This document shows, piece by piece, positions 1-8,461 of a stretch of DNA of 8,461 nt. Numbering within the stretch: position 1 is the first letter of the stretch; every line of letters starts with the position of its first letter. Location of the stretch: the IMG/VR virus record IMGVR_UViG_2734482553_000012, one strand, 5' to 3'. The translations under genes and the position numbers were made by a program. Under the pieces are notes generated by a model that saw only the letters and a list, made by a program, of their open reading frames with translations, was not told the origin of the DNA and did no database searches. This DNA comes from a virus. Lineage: Duplodnaviria; Heunggongvirae; Uroviricota; Caudoviricetes.

Positions 1-3000
1 CGCCTGCTGGTTCAGATACAGCGTAACGGTGGCTGGGTGACGGAAAAAGACATCACCATTAAGGGCAAAACCACCTCGCAGTATCTGGTCTCGGTGGTGG
101 TGGATAACCTGCCTCCGCGCCCGTTCAGTATCCGGATGCGCAGGATGACACCGGACAGCACCACAGACCAGCTGCAGAACAAAACGCTCTGGTCGTCATA
201 CACCGAAATCATCGATGTGAAACAGTGCTACCCGAACACTGCACTGGTCGGCGTACAGGTGGACTCGGAGCAGTTCGGCAGCCAGCAGGTGAGTCGTAAT
301 TATCATCTTCGCGGGCGCATTCTGCAGGTGCCGTCGAACTATAACCCGCAGACGCGACAATACAGCGGTATCTGGGACGGAACGTTAAAACCAGCATACA
401 GCAACAACATGGCCTGGTGTCTGTGGGATATGCTGACCCACCCGCGCTACGGCATGGGGAAACGTCTTGGTGCGGCGGATGTGGACAAATGGGCGCTGTA
501 TGTCATCGGCCAGTACTGCGACCAGTCAGNNNNNNNNNNNNNNNNNNNNNNNNNNNNNNNNNNNNNNNNNNNNNNNNNNNNNNNNNNNNNNNNNNNNNNN
601 NNNNNNNNNNNNNNNNNNNNNNNNNNNNNNNNNNNNNNNNNNNNNNNNNNNNNNNNNNNNNNNNNNNNNNNNNNNNNNNNNNNNNNNNNNNNNNNNNNNN
701 NNNNNNNNNNNNNNNNNNNNNNNNNNNNNNNNNNNNNNNNNNNNNNNNNNNNNNNNNNNNNNNNNNNNNNNNNNNNNNNNNNNNNNNNNNNNNTGAACTG
801 GATTGACCCGGATAACGGCTGGGAGACGGCGACAGAGCTTGTGGAGGATACGCAGGCCATTGCCCGTTACGGTCGTAACGTCACGAAGATGGATGCTTTT
901 GGCTGTACCAGCCGGGGGCAGGCACACCGCGCCGGGCTGTGGCTGATTAAAACAGAACTGCTGGAAACGCAGACCGTGGACTTCAGCGTGGGCGCAGAAG
1001 GGCTTCGCCATGTGCCGGGCGATGTCATTGAAATCTGTGATGATGACTATGCGGGTATCAGCATCGGCGGGCGCGTGCTGGCGGTAAACAGCCAGACCCG
1101 GACGCTGACGCTCGACCGTGAAATCACGCTGCCATCCTCCGGTACCATGCTGATAAGCCTGGTTGACGGAAGTGGCAATCCGGTCAGCGTGGAGGTTCAG
1201 TCCGTCACCGACGGCGTGAAGGTGAAAGTGAGCCGTGTTCCTGACGGCGTTGCTGAATACAGCGTGTGGGGGCTGAAGCTGCCGACGTTGCGCCAGCGCC
1301 TGTTCCGCTGTGTGAGTANNNNNNNNNNNNNNNNNNNNNNNNNNNNNNNNNNNNNNNNNNNNNNNNNNNNNNNNNNNNNNNNNNNNNNNNNNNNNNNNNN
1401 NNNNNNNNNNNNNNNNNNNNNNNNNNNNNNNNNNNNNNNNNNNNNNNNNNNNNNNNNNNNNNNNNNNNNNNNNNNNNNNNNNNNNNNNNNNNNNNNNNNN
1501 NNNNNNNNNNNNNNNNNNNNNNNNNNNNNNNNNNNNNNNNNNNNNNNNNNNNNNNNNNNNNNNNNNNNNNNNNNNNNNNNNNNNNNNNNNNNNNNNNNNN
1601 NNNNNNNNNNNNNNNNNNNNNNNNNNNNNNNNNNNNNNNNNNNNNNNNNNNNNNNNNNNNNNNNGCTGACAGTCCGGGCGGTAAATGCCTGGGGACAGCA
1701 GGGCGATCCGGCGTCGGTATCGTTCAGGATTGCCGCACCGGTAGCACCGTCGCGGATTGAGCTGACGCCGGGCTATTTTCAGATAACTGCCACGCCGCAT
1801 CTTGCGGTTTATGATCCGACGGTACAGTTTGAGTTCTGGTTCTCGGAAACGCGGATTACCGATATCAGGCAGGTTGAAACCACAGCCCGCTACCTTGGCG
1901 CGGGGCTGTACTGGATAGCCGCCAGTATCAATATCAAACCGGGCCATGATTATTACTTTTATATCCGCAGTGTGAACACCGTTGGCAAATCGGCATTCGT
2001 GGAGGCCGTCGGTCGGGCGAGCGATGATGCGGAAGGTTACCTGGATTTTTTCAAAGGCAAGATAACCGAATCCCATCTCGGTAAAGAGCTGCTGGAAAAA
2101 GTTGATCTGACGGAGGATAACGCCAGCAGACTGGATGAGTTTTCGAAAGAGTGGAAGGACGCTAACGATAAATGGAATGCGATGTGGGGCGTCAAAATTG
2201 AGCAGACCAAAGACGGCAAACATTATGTCGCGGGTATTGGCCTCAGCATGGAGGACACGGAGGAAGGCAAGCTGAGCCAGTTTCTGGTTGCCGCCAATCG
2301 TATCGCGTTTATTGACCCGGCAAACGGGAATGAAACGCCGATGTTTGTGGCGCAGGGCAACCAGATATTCATGAACGACGTGTTCCTGAAGCGCCTGACA
2401 GCCCCCGCCATTACCAGCGGTGGCAGTCCTCCGGTATTTTCCCTGACATCAGACGGAAAGCTGACCGCTAAAAATGCGGATATCAGTGGTAGTGTGAATG
2501 CGAACTCAGGAACGCTCAACAATGTCACGATTAACCAGAACTGTACGATTAAGGGCATGCTGGAGGCGACCCAGGTCAGAGGGGATTTCGTTAAAGCTGT
2601 ATCAAAAGCCTTCCCGAAAAAAGTCGGTACGTGGGGTAACACGGAAACACCAGACGGTACGGTTACAGTCACCATCAGCGATGATCATAACTTTGACCGC
2701 CAGATTATTATTCCGCCCATTATTTTTAACGGTATAGCGTATGACGATCCGGGGAGCGGAAATAACCCGGGAGGCACGCGATACACGGGTTATGGTTTTG
2801 AAGTTCGCAAAAACGGCGTATTAATCGCATCCAGAGAAACTAAAGGTGCCATTCCCGGTAGTTACAGTGCAGTTATTGATATGCCTAGTGGTGGTGGTAG
2901 CGTCACTCTGGAGTTTAAGATTTTCCAGAAAGGCAATCAGGGGGCAGGCAATATCACCGACTGTACGGTGATTGTGACCAAAAAAGCGGCTTCCGGCATC

Positions 3001-3012
3001 AGTATTCGTTGA
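1..3012 (+). CDS. J: Host-specificity / tail tip protein J (central tail fibre), 5'-partial; start lies upstream of the window
   Basis: Seen: one open frame-1 reading frame from base 1 to TGA at 3010-3012 (the ORF track's 37..3012 is the same frame from its first ATG). From memory of lambda J: visible segments such as [128 protein letters not shown] and [59 protein letters not shown] match lambda J closely. Two N-runs fall inside the gene and keep the frame. Confidence 0.95.
530..793. other. Run of 264 N (masked or unresolved sequence) inside J
   Basis: Seen: uninterrupted n characters. Length is a multiple of 3 and the J frame is the same on both sides; the hidden span (88 codons) matches the distance between the flanking motifs (QYCDQS ... 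[10 protein letters not shown]) as I recall them in lambda J, so the masking appears length-preserving. Confidence 0.99.
1319..1664. other. Run of 346 N (masked or unresolved sequence) inside J
   Basis: Seen: uninterrupted n characters. Together with the partial codons at 1318 and 1665 it spans 116 codons; the J frame is positionally conserved across it (CVS before, [12 protein letters not shown] after). Confidence 0.99.
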
Positions 3013-3082: not shown

Positions 3083-3893
3083 ATGCGTAAAGTTTGTGCA
3101 GCCATTTTGTCCGCAGCCATTTGCCTGGCCGTATCCGGTGCGCCTGCATGGGCGTCTGAACATCAGTCCACGCTGAGCGCGGGGTATCTTCATGCCCGGA
3201 CCAACGTTCCCGGCAGTGATGATCTGAACGGGATTAACGTGAAATACCGTTATGAGTTTACGGATACGCTGGGGCTGGTGACGTCATTCAGCTATGCAGG
3301 AGACAAGAATCGCCAGCTGACCCGTTACAGCGATACCCGCTGGCATGAAGATTCCGTGCGTAACCGCTGGTTCAGCGTGATGGCGGGGCCGTCTGTGCGC
3401 GTGAATGAATGGTTCAGCGCGTATGCGATGGCGGGTGTGGCTTACAGCCGTGTGTCGACTTTCTCCGGGGATTATCTCCGCGTAACTGACAACAAGGGGA
3501 AAACGCACGACGTGCTGACCGGAAGTGATGACGGTCGCCACAGCAACACGTCTCTGGCGTGGGGAGCTGGCGTGCAGTTTAACCCGACCGAATCCGTGGC
3601 CATTGATATTGCTTATGAAGGCTCCGGCAGTGGCGACTGGCGCACTGACGGTTTCATCGTGGGTGNNNNNNNNNNNNNNNNNNNNNNNNNNNNNNNNNNN
3701 NNNNNNNNNNNNNNNNNNNNNNNNNNNNNNNNNNNNNNNNNNNNNNNNNNNNNNNNNNNNNNNNNNNNNNNNNNNNNNNNNNNNNNNNNNNNNNNNNNNN
3801 NNNNNNNNNNNNNNNNNNNNNNNNNNNNNNNNNNNNNNNNNNNNNNNNNNNNNNNNNGACGGTTTCATCGTGGGTGTCGGTTATAAATTCTGA
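3083..3893 (+). CDS. lom: Lom outer-membrane protein (Ail/Lom/PagC/OmpX family of 8-stranded beta-barrels); reading frame as given is broken near the 3' end by an N-run plus a 19-bp duplication
   Basis: Seen: ATG at 3083 preceded by GAGAGG (3072-3077); N-terminus MRKVCAAILSAAICLAVSGAPAWA-SEHQ looks like a signal peptide. From memory: the visible translation (HQSTLSAGYLHARTNVPGSDDLNGINVKYRYEFTDTLGLVTSFSYAGDKNRQLTRYSDTRWHEDSVRNRWFSVMAGPSVRVNEWFSAYAMAGVAYSRV...DWRTDGFIVG) matches lambda Lom almost residue for residue. Seen: the last codons GVGYKF-TGA (stop 3891-3893) sit in a different positional frame (start mod 3 = 0, versus 2 for the start codon) after the N-run. Confidence 0.85.
3647..3876. 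repeat. 19-bp perfect direct repeat GACGGTTTCATCGTGGGTG (3647-3665 and 3858-3876) flanking a 192-nt N-run inside lom
   Basis: Seen: the identical 19-mer immediately precedes and follows the N-run. N-run plus one repeat copy is 211 nt (not a multiple of 3), which accounts for the lom frameshift. Removing those 211 nt would restore an uninterrupted lom ending ...DGFIVGVGYKF. Confidence 0.9.
3666..3857. other. Run of 192 N (masked or unresolved sequence) inside lom
   Basis: Seen: uninterrupted n characters bounded by the 19-bp direct repeat. Confidence 0.99.
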
Positions 3894-3947: not shown

Positions 3948-3957
3948 TGGGGTGAAT

Positions 3958-6900
3958 ATGGCAGTAAAGATTTCAGGTGTACTGAAAGACGGCACAGGAA
4001 AACCGGTACAGAACTGCACAATCCAGCTGAAAGCAAAACGTAACAGCACCACGGTGGTGGTGAACACGCTGGCCTCAGAAAATCCGGATGAAGCCGGGCG
4101 TTACAGCATGGACGTTGAGTACGGTCAGTACAGCGTTATTCTGTTGGTGGAAGGATTCCCGCCGTCACATGCCGGGACCATCACCGTGTATGAAGATTCC
4201 CGACCCGGTACGCTGAATGATTTTCTCGGTGCCATGACGGAGGATGATGCCCGTCCGGAGGCACTGCGCCGTTTTGAGCTGATGGTGGAAGAGGTGGCGC
4301 GTAACGCGTCCGCGGTGGCACAGAACACGGCAGCCGCGAAGAAATCAGCCAGCGATGCCAGCACATCAGCCCGTGAGGCGGCAACCCATGCGACTGATGC
4401 TGCAGATTCAGCACGTGCAGCCAGCACGTCAGCCGGACAGGCCGCTTCGTCGGCTCAGTCAGCGTCTTCCAGCGCAGGAACGGCATCAACAAAGGCCACT
4501 GAAGCCTCAAAAAGTGCTGCCGCTGCAGAGTCCTCAAAAAGCGCGGCGGCTACCAGTGCCGGTGCGGCGAAAACGTTAGAAACGAATGCGGCAGCGTCAC
4601 AACAATCAGCAGCCACTTCTGCATCCACCGCGACCACGAAAGCGTCAGAAGCTGCCACCTCAGCCCGGGATGCGTCGGCTTCAAAAGAGGCGGCAAAATC
4701 ATCAGAAACGAACGCATCATCAAGCGCCAGTAGCGCAGCTTCCTCGGCGACGGCGGCTGCAAATTCTGCGAAGGCGGCCAAAACGTCCGAGACGAACGCC
4801 AGGTCTTCTGAAACGGCAGCGGGACAGAGTGCCTCAGCTGCGGCAGGCTCAAAAACAGCGGCTGCGTCGTCTGCCAGCGCCGCGTCAACAAGTGCCGGGC
4901 AGGCCTCAGCCAGTGCCACCGCCGCCGGAAAATCGGCAGAAAGCGCCGCATCATCCGCTTCAACAGCCACAACGAAGGCTGGCGAAGCCACTGAGCAGGC
5001 CACGGCAGCAGCGAGGTCAGCTTCCGCAGCGAAGACATCCGAAACGAACGCGAAAGCGTCGGAAACCCGTGCAGAATCCTCAAAAACGGCTGCCGCATCG
5101 TCCGCCAGTTCGGCGGCGTCATCGGCATCATCGGCGTCTGCTTCAAAAGATGAGGCGACCAGACAGGCGTCAGCAGCGAAGGGCAGCGCCACGACGGCAT
5201 CCACGAAGGCGACAGAGGCTGCTGGTAGTGCGACGGCAGCAGCTCAGAGCAAAAGTACGGCGGAATCTGCAGCAACGCGCGCTGAGACAGCGGCAAAACG
5301 GGCAGAGGATATTGCATCCGCCGTGGCGCTTGAGGATGCGAGCACGACGAAAAAGGGGATAGTACAGCTCAGTAGTGCGACTAACAGCACTTCCGAGTCA
5401 CTGGCGGCAACACCAAAAGCCGTTAAGGCCGCGTATGACCTGGCTAACGGGAAATACACCGCACAGGATGCAACGACAGCACAGAAAGGGATAATCCAGC
5501 TAAGCAGCGCGACCAACAGCACGTCTGAAACGCTGGCGGCAACGCCAAAGGCAGTAAAAGCAGCCAATGACAATGCTGAGAAACGTCTGCAGAAAGATCA
5601 GAACGGTGCGGATATCCCTGGCAAAGACACCTTTACGAAAAATATTGGTGCCTGCCGTGCCTTCGGTGGGTCAGTAAGCACAACAACAGGAAACTGGACG
5701 ACTGCACAGTTTATCGAGTGGCTGGATTCTCAGGGAGCATTTAACCATCCATACTGGATGTGCAAGGGTTCCTGGTCTTATGGCAATAATAAAATCATTA
5801 CTGATACTGGCTGCGGTAATATTCATCTCGCCGGAGCTGTCATTGAAGTAATGGGGATAAAGTCAGCGATGACGATCCGCATTACCACTCCGACCACATC
5901 CAGCGGTGGCGGAACAACCAACGCCCAGTTTACCTATATTAATCACGGAACAGATTATTCACCTGGCTGGCGAAGGGACTATAACTCCAGAAATAAGCCA
6001 ACGGCATCAGAGATCGGGGCGCTACCGTCAGGTGGAACAGCAGTATCATCAGTTAATCTGGCTTCAAAAGGTCGGGTAGCCGCGCTGACAGACAATACGC
6101 AGGGGGCAGCAGGTCTTGAGTTATACGAGGTGTATAACAACGGATATCCAACAGCGTATGGAAATATCATTCACCTGAAAGGGATGACAGCCGTTGGCGA
6201 AGGTGAGTTACTCATCGGCTGGAGTGGTACAAGCGGTGCTCATGCTCCGGCATTTATTCGTTCACGACGGGATACGACCGACGCAAACTGGTCGCCGTGG
6301 GCGCAGCTTTACACCTCGGCTCATCCTCCTGCAGAGTTTTATCCAGTCGGTGCACCAATCCCGTGGCCATCAGATACCGTTCCGTCTGGTTATGCCCTGA
6401 TGCAGGGGCAGACTTTTGACAAATCTGCTTACCCGAAACTTGCAGCCGCTTATCCGTCAGGCGTGATCCCTGATATGCGTGGCTGGACGATTAAGGGCAA
6501 GCCCGCCAGTGGTCGTGCCGTATTGTCTCAGGAACAGGATGGCATTAAATCGCACACCCACAGCGCCAGCGCATCCAGTACGGATTTGGGGACGAAAACC
6601 ACATCGTCGTTTGATTACGGCACTAAATCCACGAATAACACCGGGGCGCATACGCACAGTCTGAGCGGCTCTACAAGTTCAGCTGGGGCCCACCAACATA
6701 GTCAGACTGGGCCCAGAACGAATAGCGGGAGTCAACCTACTGGAATGTTTCCGGCAGGGAGTACTCAAGTTAGCGGGACTAATCAGGTTGGTATCAGTGG
6801 CTCATTAACCAGTGGCACCTCCCAATGGGTAGGTAAATCATCTTCAGAAGGAAACCATACACACTCACTGTCCGGCACAGCAGCATCTGCGGGTGCACAC

Positions 6901-7041
6901 GCGCATACTGTCGGTATTGGTGCTCATACGCACTCTGTTGCGATTGGTTCACATGGACACACCATCACCGTTAACGCTGCTGGTAACGCGGAAAACACCG
7001 TCAAAAACATCGCATTTAACTATATTGTGAGGCTCGCATAA
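3958..7041 (+). CDS. stf: Side tail fibre protein (Stf-like), about 1027 aa, mosaic: lambda-Stf-like N-terminus, expanded Ala/Ser-rich shaft, tandem tail-fibre repeats, a non-lambda central module and a lambda-Stf-like His-rich C-terminal tip
   Basis: Seen: frame-1 ORF ending at TAA 7039-7041; the ORF track starts at GTG 3952, but ATG 3958 gives [26 protein letters not shown], which matches the lambda Stf N-terminus from memory; GGGGTG lies just upstream. From memory: the C-terminal ~230 residues (GAPIPWPSD...[34 protein letters not shown]...[31 protein letters not shown]) match lambda Stf. Choice of start codon is inference. Confidence 0.92.
4290..5340 (+). repeat. Ala/Ser/Thr-rich low-complexity, internally repetitive region of stf (about 350 codons)
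   Basis: Seen: translation is dominated by A, S, T, K, E with recurring motifs ([44 protein letters not shown]) and the DNA is GC-rich and self-similar. Both antisense frames and an alternative sense frame stay open across it (ORF-track entries 4455..5204 -, 4550..5317 -, 4586..5362 +), a typical low-complexity artefact. Confidence 0.85.
5353..5571 (+). repeat. Tandem duplication of a phage tail-fibre repeat motif inside stf (period 132 nt / 44 aa)
   Basis: Seen: [29 protein letters not shown] (5353-5439) and [29 protein letters not shown] (5485-5571) are nearly identical at the protein level, while the DNA copies differ at many synonymous positions (e.g. CAGCTCAGTAGTGCGACTAACAGCACTTCC vs CAGCTAAGCAGCGCGACCAACAGCACGTCT). 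The motif resembles the conserved phage tail-fibre repeat found in T-even and lambdoid fibres (recollection). Confidence 0.85.
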
Positions 7042-7622
7042 TGGCATTCAGAATGAGTGAACAAGCACGGACCATAAAAATTTATAACCTGCTGGCCGGA
7101 ACTAATGAATTTATTGGTGAAGGTGACGCATATATTCCGCCTCATACAGGTCTGCCTGCAAACAGTACCGATATTGCACCGCCAGATATTCCGGCTGGTT
7201 TCGTGGCTGTTTTCAACAGTGATGAGTCATCGTGGCATCTCGTTGAAGATCATCGGGGTAAAACGGTTTATGACGTGGCTTCCGGCGACGCGTTATTTAT
7301 TTCTGAACTCGGCTCATTACCGGAAAATGTCACCTGGTTATCCCCGGAAGGGGAGTTTCAGAAGTGGAACGGCACAGCCTGGGTGAAGGATACGGAAGCA
7401 GAAAAACTGTTCCGGATCCGGGAGGCGGAAGAAACAAAAAACAGCCTGATGCAGGTAGCCAGTGAGCATATAGCGCCGCTTCAGGATGCTGTGGATCTGG
7501 AGATCGCAACGGAGAAAGAAACCTTGTTGCTGGAAGCTTGGAAAAAGTATCGGGTGTTGCTGAACCGTGTTGATACATCAACTGCACCGGATATTGAATG
7601 GCCAGTAGCACCTATAGGGTAA
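7041..7622 (+). CDS. tfa: Tail fibre assembly protein (Tfa chaperone)
   Basis: Seen: ORF from ATG 7041-7043 to TAA 7620-7622; its start overlaps the stf stop by one base (TAATG at 7039-7043). From memory: translation [62 protein letters not shown]...[26 protein letters not shown] matches lambda Tfa very closely. Confidence 0.93.
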
Positions 7623-8098: not shown

Positions 8099-8371
8099 TC
8101 GTCTTAATATAGTCACGCATGCAACTTGTTCCATGCGGAGATTAAAGATTGGAATATAACGCGAAGATGGAATTAAATTACATTTGCAATAATTAATTTA
8201 TTATTACTCAATAATTACCGATATTATTATTGTAAATTAATCATTAGAATGCAAAAAGAAATGTAACGGCAAAATAAGAGGACGATAGCTGAGAAAAAAG
8301 CGTGCTTTCCCAATCTGGGGCAAATCACGTCTGAATGACACCTGAAAACAGGTGGTAGCCTCAAGAAGGCT

Positions 8372-8394
8372 GGTGATGCTGCCAACTTACTGAT
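8372..8394 (+). repeat. IS1 left terminal inverted repeat (IRL)
   Basis: From memory: GGTGATGCTGCCAACTTACTGAT is the canonical 23-bp IS1 terminal inverted repeat. The 9 bp just outside it (8363-8371, AAGAAGGCT) would be the target-site duplication if this is a simple insertion; the other copy would lie beyond the window. Confidence 0.85.
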
Positions 8395-8426
8395 TTAGTG
8401 TATGATGGTGTTTTTGAGGTGCTCCA

Positions 8427-8461
8427 GTGGCTTCTGTTTCTATCAGCTGTCCCTCCTGTTC
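8427..8461 (+). CDS. insA: IS1 InsA (transposition regulator), 5'-partial fragment with GTG start
   Basis: Seen: GTG at 8427 followed by GCT TCT GTT TCT ATC AGC TGT CCC TCC TGT, translating to (M)ASVSISCPSC. From memory: this is the InsA N-terminus, and insA is known to start with GTG. Runs off the window end. Confidence 0.85.
   Translation, partial: MASVSISCPSC

Follow-up and report, generated by a model that had tools for sequence, protein, structure and literature searches.

A hypervariable tip allele on a conserved HxH scaffold in the side tail fibre of a lambdoid prophage

Near the C-terminus of the side tail fibre protein Stf of a lambdoid prophage, a divergent segment lies between conserved HxH motifs. 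This raises the questions of whether the segment forms the receptor-contacting tip of the fibre and whether its divergence from lambda Stf means a different receptor. The DNA analysed, referred to here as the window, is a stretch of 8,461 nt that carries J–lom–stf–tfa, i.e. the distal part of the tail module. Its contents are:

To position 3012, cut at the 5' end: J, annotated as such in related records
From position 3083: lom (Pfam Ail_Lom, E = 4.5e-119)
3952–7041, + strand: stf, side tail fibre gene, an intact ORF of 1029 aa including the variable tip
7041–7622, + strand: tfa, tail fibre assembly chaperone (Pfam Caudo_TAP, E = 4.6e-44), ORF intact
About 580 nt after tfa: unannotated stretch
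About 8200 to the end of the window: IS1 copy, which begins about 580 nt past tfa

The N-terminal tail-attachment domain (PF08400) and the position downstream of J and lom identify the stf product as a lambdoid Stf. Its Pfam domains are phage_tail_N (PF08400, residues 3–136, E = 1.4e-71), two copies of Phage_fiber_2 and Collar (residues 800–847). The start of tfa overlaps the stop codon of stf, and the chaperone gene is thus located directly downstream of the fibre gene. Stretches masked with N are present at 530–793, 1319–1664 and 3666–3857.

All seven HxH motifs listed in the initial annotation were found in the C-terminus of Stf. They begin at nt 6553, 6649, 6691, 6856, 6898, 6925 and 6952, correspond to residues 868–1003 and are confined to the last 165 residues. 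Shuffled Stf sequences contained on average 0.45 HxH motifs and at most 4 (20,000 shuffles), compared with the 7 observed. The features of this region are:

6340–7041, + strand: C-terminal receptor-binding module (collar/D10 and iron-stapled needle/D11), conserved and joined to variable shafts
6553–6561, 6649–6657 and 6691–6699, + strand: ascending HxH motifs 1–3, which align to T4 gp37 histidines
6856–6864, 6898–6906, 6925–6933 and 6952–6960, + strand: descending HxH motifs 4–7, giving the 3+4 layout of T4 gp37
6700–6855, + strand: hypervariable tip core of 52 aa (residues 917–968, SQTGPR...KSSSEGN), the presumed receptor-contacting head, aligning to gp37 932–965
6645–6870, + strand: recombinant cassette as delimited by DNA identity breakpoints (comparison with PhiR42_1 and ends of blastn HSPs)

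The C-terminal 234 residues of Stf match residues 785–1026 of T4 gp37 (PDB 2XGF) with a phmmer E-value of 3.8e-84 (query 30–263 against chain residues 28–242). In gp37, residues 882–931 and 960–1009 constitute the "stem", while the "tip" (932–959) forms the distal pole (Islam et al. 2019, PMC6957217). The metal coordination that had been ascribed to the HxH motifs is documented for T4 gp37, in which the histidines coordinate seven iron atoms and H929 and H931 of the third motif are named as iron-binding (PMC6957217). The 3+4 layout is common to this Stf and T4, while lambda, slur03 and JK42 have a 3+5 layout. Conservation extends to the extreme C-terminus: the last 26 residues are identical to those of lambda Stf, and T4 gp37 departs from them at just three positions.

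In the stf frame, window positions 6691–6864 encode HQH, 52 residues and HTH, so that the interval takes in the whole of the third and fourth HxH motifs and all that lies between them. The core aligned to gp37 932–965 encompasses the tip subdomain 932–959. For T4, LPS- and OmpC-binding residues were assigned to this tip by amber-suppressor, combinatorial and alanine mutagenesis (PMC6957217). Judged by the homology to 2XGF and by the gp37 tip mutagenesis, the flagged residues would be the receptor-contacting knob. The view of the segment as a fibre-tip homologue is supported by this alignment, which probably places it at the distal knob of an interwoven trimeric needle. An AF2 monomer model of Stf residues 796–1029, calculated with a 39-sequence alignment, had a pLDDT of 54, a pTM of 0.19 and almost no secondary structure. 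A poor monomer model of this kind would be expected of an obligate interwoven trimer.

Stf was aligned to lambda Stf, T4 gp37 and two other Stf proteins. The inter-HxH block is different in each of lambda orf-314, T4 gp37, PhiR42_1 Stf and mEp332 Stf, whereas the flanks are nearly invariant. Identities of the window allele are:

Lambda: core 35%, upstream flank 84%, downstream flank 81%
PhiR42_1: core 33%, upstream flank 97%, downstream flank 98%
mEp332: core 38%, upstream flank 95%, downstream flank 100%
T4: core 17%, upstream flank 81%, downstream flank 78%

Hence, the initial annotation was right that the segment differs from lambda Stf (core 35% versus 81–84% in the flanks) while the HxH framework and the extreme C-terminus are conserved. 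Core identity amounts to 33–38% with lambdoid alleles and to 57–58% with the gp37 proteins of slur03 and JK42. Serine, glycine and threonine together account for 29 of the 52 tip residues.

The extent of this variation was surveyed by taking the longest inter-HxH segment from each of six reference sequences and 120 database hits to the last 173 residues of Stf; among the proteins listed for the 173-residue query, all were short or partial. At least 69 distinct longest segments occur in these 126 scaffolds. In most of them the third HxH motif is followed by the longest gap, and the segments there measure 32–53 aa. In a smaller number of scaffolds, most of them partial or with five or six motifs, the longest gap lies elsewhere. 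In a 39-sequence alignment, the mean column entropy was 2.43 bits in the core and only 0.61 and 0.58 bits upstream and downstream, respectively. The hypervariable insertion therefore sits between the third and fourth HxH motifs, at the site of the tip subdomain 932–959. The window allele belongs to a superfamily loosely described by the pattern HQH..SG..FPxG(Y/S)T..SG..GK(T/S)SS(D/E)G(A/N)HTH, which also takes in the Stf proteins of mEp332 and ev099 and several T-even gp37 tips. The tip of the window is thus one allele of a large polymorphic series on a near-invariant scaffold.

At the DNA level, the borders of the variable segment are abrupt. Identity with PhiR42_1 is 93–100% from 6200 to about 6640, drops to 30–63% across the block and is back at 90–100% between 6860 and the end of tfa. 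The conserved motifs on either side of the variable segment are called His boxes here, following Tetart et al. Compared with PhiR42_1, mEp332, MLI023K1, L019 and L021, identity falls at 6645–6668, between the second and third His boxes, and recovers at 6845–6870 at the fourth. Correspondingly, blastn HSPs end at 6660–6668 and 6845–6856 for E. coli MLI023K1 and the loci L009, L010, L019 and L021. Since these sharp borders lie beside flanks that are 97–100% identical, the divergence reflects recombinational replacement and not local drift. Homologous recombination inside the conserved His-box flanks accounts for the exchange of the tip. The borders fit the principle, attributed in PMC3157838 to Tetart et al. 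(1996, 1998), that adhesins are exchanged in or beside their best-conserved motifs. The base composition of the cassette (52.2% GC, with flanks of 54.2% and 50.9%) gave no signal of foreign origin. Two stf copies with different tips at L009, L019 and L021 had suggested a true tandem; this was rejected, as the L009 junctions hold N/X, suggesting scaffolded prophage copies.

The start of the collar, at about 6340, marks a second junction: 6350–7600 is common to BH100N, lambda and mEp332 at 90–100% identity, and the shafts upstream are unrelated. One and the same tip sits on more than one shaft, as in BH100N (946 aa), the window (1029 aa) and L017. Conversely, the window shaft carries other tips in PhiR42_1 and MLI023K1. 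Consequently, tip, scaffold and shaft assort independently. A change of tip is not accompanied by a change in the downstream tfa, whose DNA is about 90–100% identical to that of its counterparts in lambda, PhiR42_1, mEp332 and BH100N whatever tip they have. The chaperone evidently acts on the conserved scaffold.

A protein identical to Stf over all 1029 aa is encoded by Shigella sonnei Ss046 (CP000038.1), and one draft assembly encodes it too. In Ss046 the gene adjoins an IS1 element and its companion tfa has a 64-nt deletion, so this copy may be inactive. No complete E. coli genome matched the window as a whole, the best hit having 97% identity over 88%. Of 5426 complete E. coli genomes, 25 contained the full 251-nt tip query (19 at 100% identity, six at 98.8–99.6%), as compared with about 690 that have the flanks and scaffold. 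The sources of these 25 genomes include humans, chicken, rodents, bat, soil and water. A scan of viral contigs added 11 IMG/VR prophage contigs with the tip at 100% amino-acid identity, while a search of genome contigs for a 60-aa tip yielded pattern matches, of which tblastn confirmed none. In the phage collection no record contained the cassette at the DNA level, every match being split in two around it. By tblastn with a 68-aa query, the best phage relatives were T-even gp37 tips (slur03, mar005P1, JK42 and others; 60–63%), and lambdoid alleles reached at most 46%. One frameshifted tip variant (P0035) was also encountered.

Taken together, we are confident that the segment corresponds to the distal tip, or head, subdomain of a fibre of the lambda-Stf/T4-gp37 type. 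By homology, a collar and an interwoven needle would be built from the last ~230 residues of three Stf chains, folding with the help of the adjacent Tfa. Every chain would run up the needle past three HxH motifs, form the distal knob with its 52 variable residues and run down again past four HxH motifs. Histidines from the three chains would coordinate seven metal ions and thereby staple the needle. The knob presumably touches the cell surface first, in a reversible manner, which may speed up adsorption ahead of irreversible binding by the central fibre J.

As for the receptor, Ur-lambda Stf binds OmpC, as the initial annotation had noted for lambda Stf, and accelerates adsorption 10- to 30-fold (PMC12617516). 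Genome-wide receptor screens of 255 E. coli phages, reported in a 2026 preprint, found 17 of 17 Straboviridae with this scaffold to be OmpC-specific despite tip variation; these screens were done on K-12, so only receptors that K-12 possesses can appear. JK42 (MK962756.1), for which the screens picked ompC, envZ and ompR, is one of the 17, and its gp37 is the closest characterised relative of the tip discussed here (58% core identity). At this level of identity, a transfer of function would not be confident. Moreover, this allele does not retain the residues with which T4 contacts OmpC and LPS, hence the binding chemistry is not transferable from T4. We nevertheless lean slightly towards the OmpC trimer as the most likely target still, possibly in the form of particular OmpC variants and with a possible contribution from LPS. 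The initial annotation had argued that a swapped tip implies altered receptor specificity. The swap itself is borne out by the breakpoints and the allele series. Its consequence does not follow, because the sister alleles in the K-12 screens, JK42 among them, were all OmpC-specific, so that a swapped tip need not entail a change of receptor. An altered fine specificity, for an OmpC variant, the LPS core or the O-antigen, is plausible, but the swap does not imply that the class of receptor has changed. A more far-reaching proposal, which we regard as tentative and rather unlikely, is that the allele does not bind OmpC of the K-12 type and reads some other surface feature, for instance an OmpC loop variant particular to certain lineages, a type of LPS core or an O-antigen.

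Glycans serve as receptors for certain members of the scaffold family, and the main competing explanation is that the tip has left OmpC for a surface glycan (LPS core sugar or O-antigen) or another outer-membrane protein, with the allele series following the diversity of that target. PhiNP ORF6, which has the same scaffold and another tip, uses LPS Glc-II (PMC9659904), T4 gp37 binds LPS of E. coli B besides OmpC (PMC6957217), and Ur-lambda Stf lets lambda infect O16-expressing K-12 if the O-antigen is unglucosylated (PMC11990801). Gifsy-1 Stf, compared here by name and not by scaffold, targets Gal II of the LPS core (PMC12312913). The many deeply diverged alleles would suit a highly polymorphic target, and the abundance of Ser, Gly and Thr in the tip also points in this direction. 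OmpC itself varies strongly, however: 525 genomes encode 76 unique OmpC proteins (PMC11338833), a polymorphism that could equally have driven the diversity of the tips. In addition, the nearest characterised allele, that of JK42, depends on OmpC, as do all 17 Straboviridae with the scaffold in spite of their tip variation. Hence, we consider a departure from OmpC possible but doubtful.

If, on the other hand, the loop tolerated almost any sequence, the specificity would be that of lambda Stf and the divergence mere neutral drift. Alanine is indeed tolerated in T4 at T939, V941, N944, K945, S948, I951–R954, S958 and N959, but many other residues of the T4 tip are essential (PMC6957217). Diverse tips have all been assigned to OmpC in the K-12 screens, as drift would allow. 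It would hardly explain why divergence ends sharply at the cassette borders next to flanks of 97–100% identity, why allele lengths vary by up to 21 residues and why this allele is kept at 98.8–100% DNA identity in 25 genomes and at 100% amino-acid identity in 11 IMG/VR contigs. Drift is therefore quite improbable. Slightly less probable still is a gene left over from a prophage in decay, with a tip that has lost its function. The occurrence of the exact protein in S. sonnei Ss046 beside IS1 and a tfa with a 64-nt deletion, the IS1 element that starts some 580 nt past the tfa of the window and the frameshifted variant P0035 would be in line with decay. Yet the window has an uninterrupted stf ORF of 1029 codons and an intact tfa, and an identical tip is found on at least two shafts in 25 complete genomes of varied sources. 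A tip that still recognises OmpC remains, by a small margin, our preferred reading.

Because scaffold and tfa are about 90–100% identical across tips, the 52-residue cassette could be inserted into Ur-lambda or T4-type fibres. Such a graft could be used to test or to retarget adsorption, a practical value that is modest but real. If the doubtful proposal of a target other than K-12-type OmpC were true, the at least 69 His-box-flanked segments of prophage Stf and T-even gp37 proteins would amount to a decodable table of tip alleles and receptors, graftable onto lambda or T4 scaffolds with the chaperone unchanged. The cassette is clean and chaperone-independent, and its target is addressable by standard means.

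Among known systems, Ur-lambda Stf (orf-401/orf-314) with its Tfa has the same J–lom–stf–tfa order, an N-terminal PF08400 domain, flanks with 81–84% identity, identical last 26 residues and tfa DNA of about 90–100% identity. It differs in the core (35% identity; 45 aa in lambda, 52 aa here), in having eight HxH motifs (3+5) instead of seven, and in its shaft, which is longer here (1029 aa Stf) and unrelated upstream of about 6340. The C-terminal domain of J differs as well. OmpC binding is documented for Ur-lambda (PMC12617516).

With the T4 gp37 tip (2XGF; D10, D11), Stf shares homology over 234 residues, about 71% identity overall, seven HxH motifs in 3+4 layout and a variable insert at the position of the tip subdomain 932–959. 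Work on this tip, which is part of a well-described family, is reportedly also due to Bartual. Unlike the present core, the T4 insert comprises 34 aa, with 17% identity, and its contact residues I933, N937, G938, G940, G942, G943, S947 and Y949 are unconserved here. T4 gp37 is moreover a myovirus fibre that depends on the chaperones gp38 and gp57A, not on a Tfa.

The closest tips are those of the T-even gp37 proteins of JK42, slur03 and mar005P1, with 57–58% core identity and 60–63% over the 68-aa query. These tips and that of the window have in common the string KSS(S/T)EGNHTH and a second string of 17 letters, and OmpC dependence is experimental in the case of JK42. In contrast, their flanks are only about 70–72% identical, they have eight HxH motifs and a gp38-type downstream gene, and the phages are virulent myoviruses. 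Identity at the DNA level that would support a recent transfer with T-even tips was not found. A paper on fPS phages (PMC7917993) deals with gp38-type adhesins and has no bearing on this fibre. For the PhiR and mEp phages, PMC12315714 was consulted and is silent on Stf.

Finally, the "T4- and lambda-based RBP family" of more than 200 phages (Magaziner & Salmond 2022, PMC9659904) is characterised by a conserved distal module of ~215 aa, divergence centred on gp37 932–965 and a chaperone gene immediately downstream, all of which apply to the window. The window allele is absent from the examples that the text of PMC9659904 names. PhiNP ORF6 differs in being a short myovirus fibre (282 aa) that uses LPS Glc-II. 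An architecture in which a hypervariable tip tops a conserved needle stapled by iron, with a chaperone of generic type, is textbook knowledge from T4, lambda and more than 200 other phages. What is new is an uncharacterised allele which has no characterised phage as carrier and which is present in S. sonnei and, among complete E. coli genomes, in about 0.5%.

Over the last ~220–230 residues aligned, the J C-terminus (window ~2560–3012) is 95% identical to J of PhiR42_1, 61% identical to J of BH100N and 55% identical to lambda J. The identity to lambda J drops steeply within the last ~150 residues, where the LamB-binding domain of lambda J is located. Since the J C-terminus is only 55% identical to that of lambda, the prophage has non-lambda alleles of J as well as of Stf, its two receptor-binding proteins.

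The window further contains these stretches:

530–793, run of N (264 nt)
1319–1664, run of N (346 nt)
3666–3857, run of N (192 nt)
8200–8461, IS1 copy, starting ~580 nt 3' of tfa

The three runs of N hide portions of J and the lom 3' end, and open reading frames crossing them are displayed with X. Partial matches to the window were found in 5419 of 5426 E. coli genomes because of the IS1 copy.

A second mosaic junction lies at window ~6340, where the collar (D10) domain of Stf begins. The region 6350–7600 is common to the window, BH100N, lambda and mEp332 at 90–100% identity, and the shafts 5' of ~6340 are unrelated to that of the window in BH100N, lambda and mEp332. In PhiR42_1, the shaft too is common with that of the window.

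Shigella sonnei Ss046 (CP000038.1, locus L008) encodes a Stf identical to that of the window. Its tfa carries a 64-nt deletion, corresponding to window 7165–7228, and the gene is uncalled. An identical deletion is present in two IMG/VR loci (L014 and L016); tfa is intact in the window and in loci L015 and L020.

In locus L009 (1–8119, CXFU01000079.1), and likewise in L019 and L021, stf copies form head-to-tail chains. Two N-terminal fragments are followed by a full stf with the window's tip, a 715-aa stf bearing a PhiR42_1-type tip, and tfa. Since the junctions between the copies in L009 contain N/X, this chain is probably the result of scaffolding several prophage copies and not a genuine tandem array.

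The siphoviruses JenK1, HdK1 and HdSG1 (~60 kb) possess a tail fibre with the same HxH scaffold as Stf and tips related to that of the window (43–44% over the query). The HxH tail-fibre module thus extends across lambdoid phages, T-even phages and these three siphoviruses.
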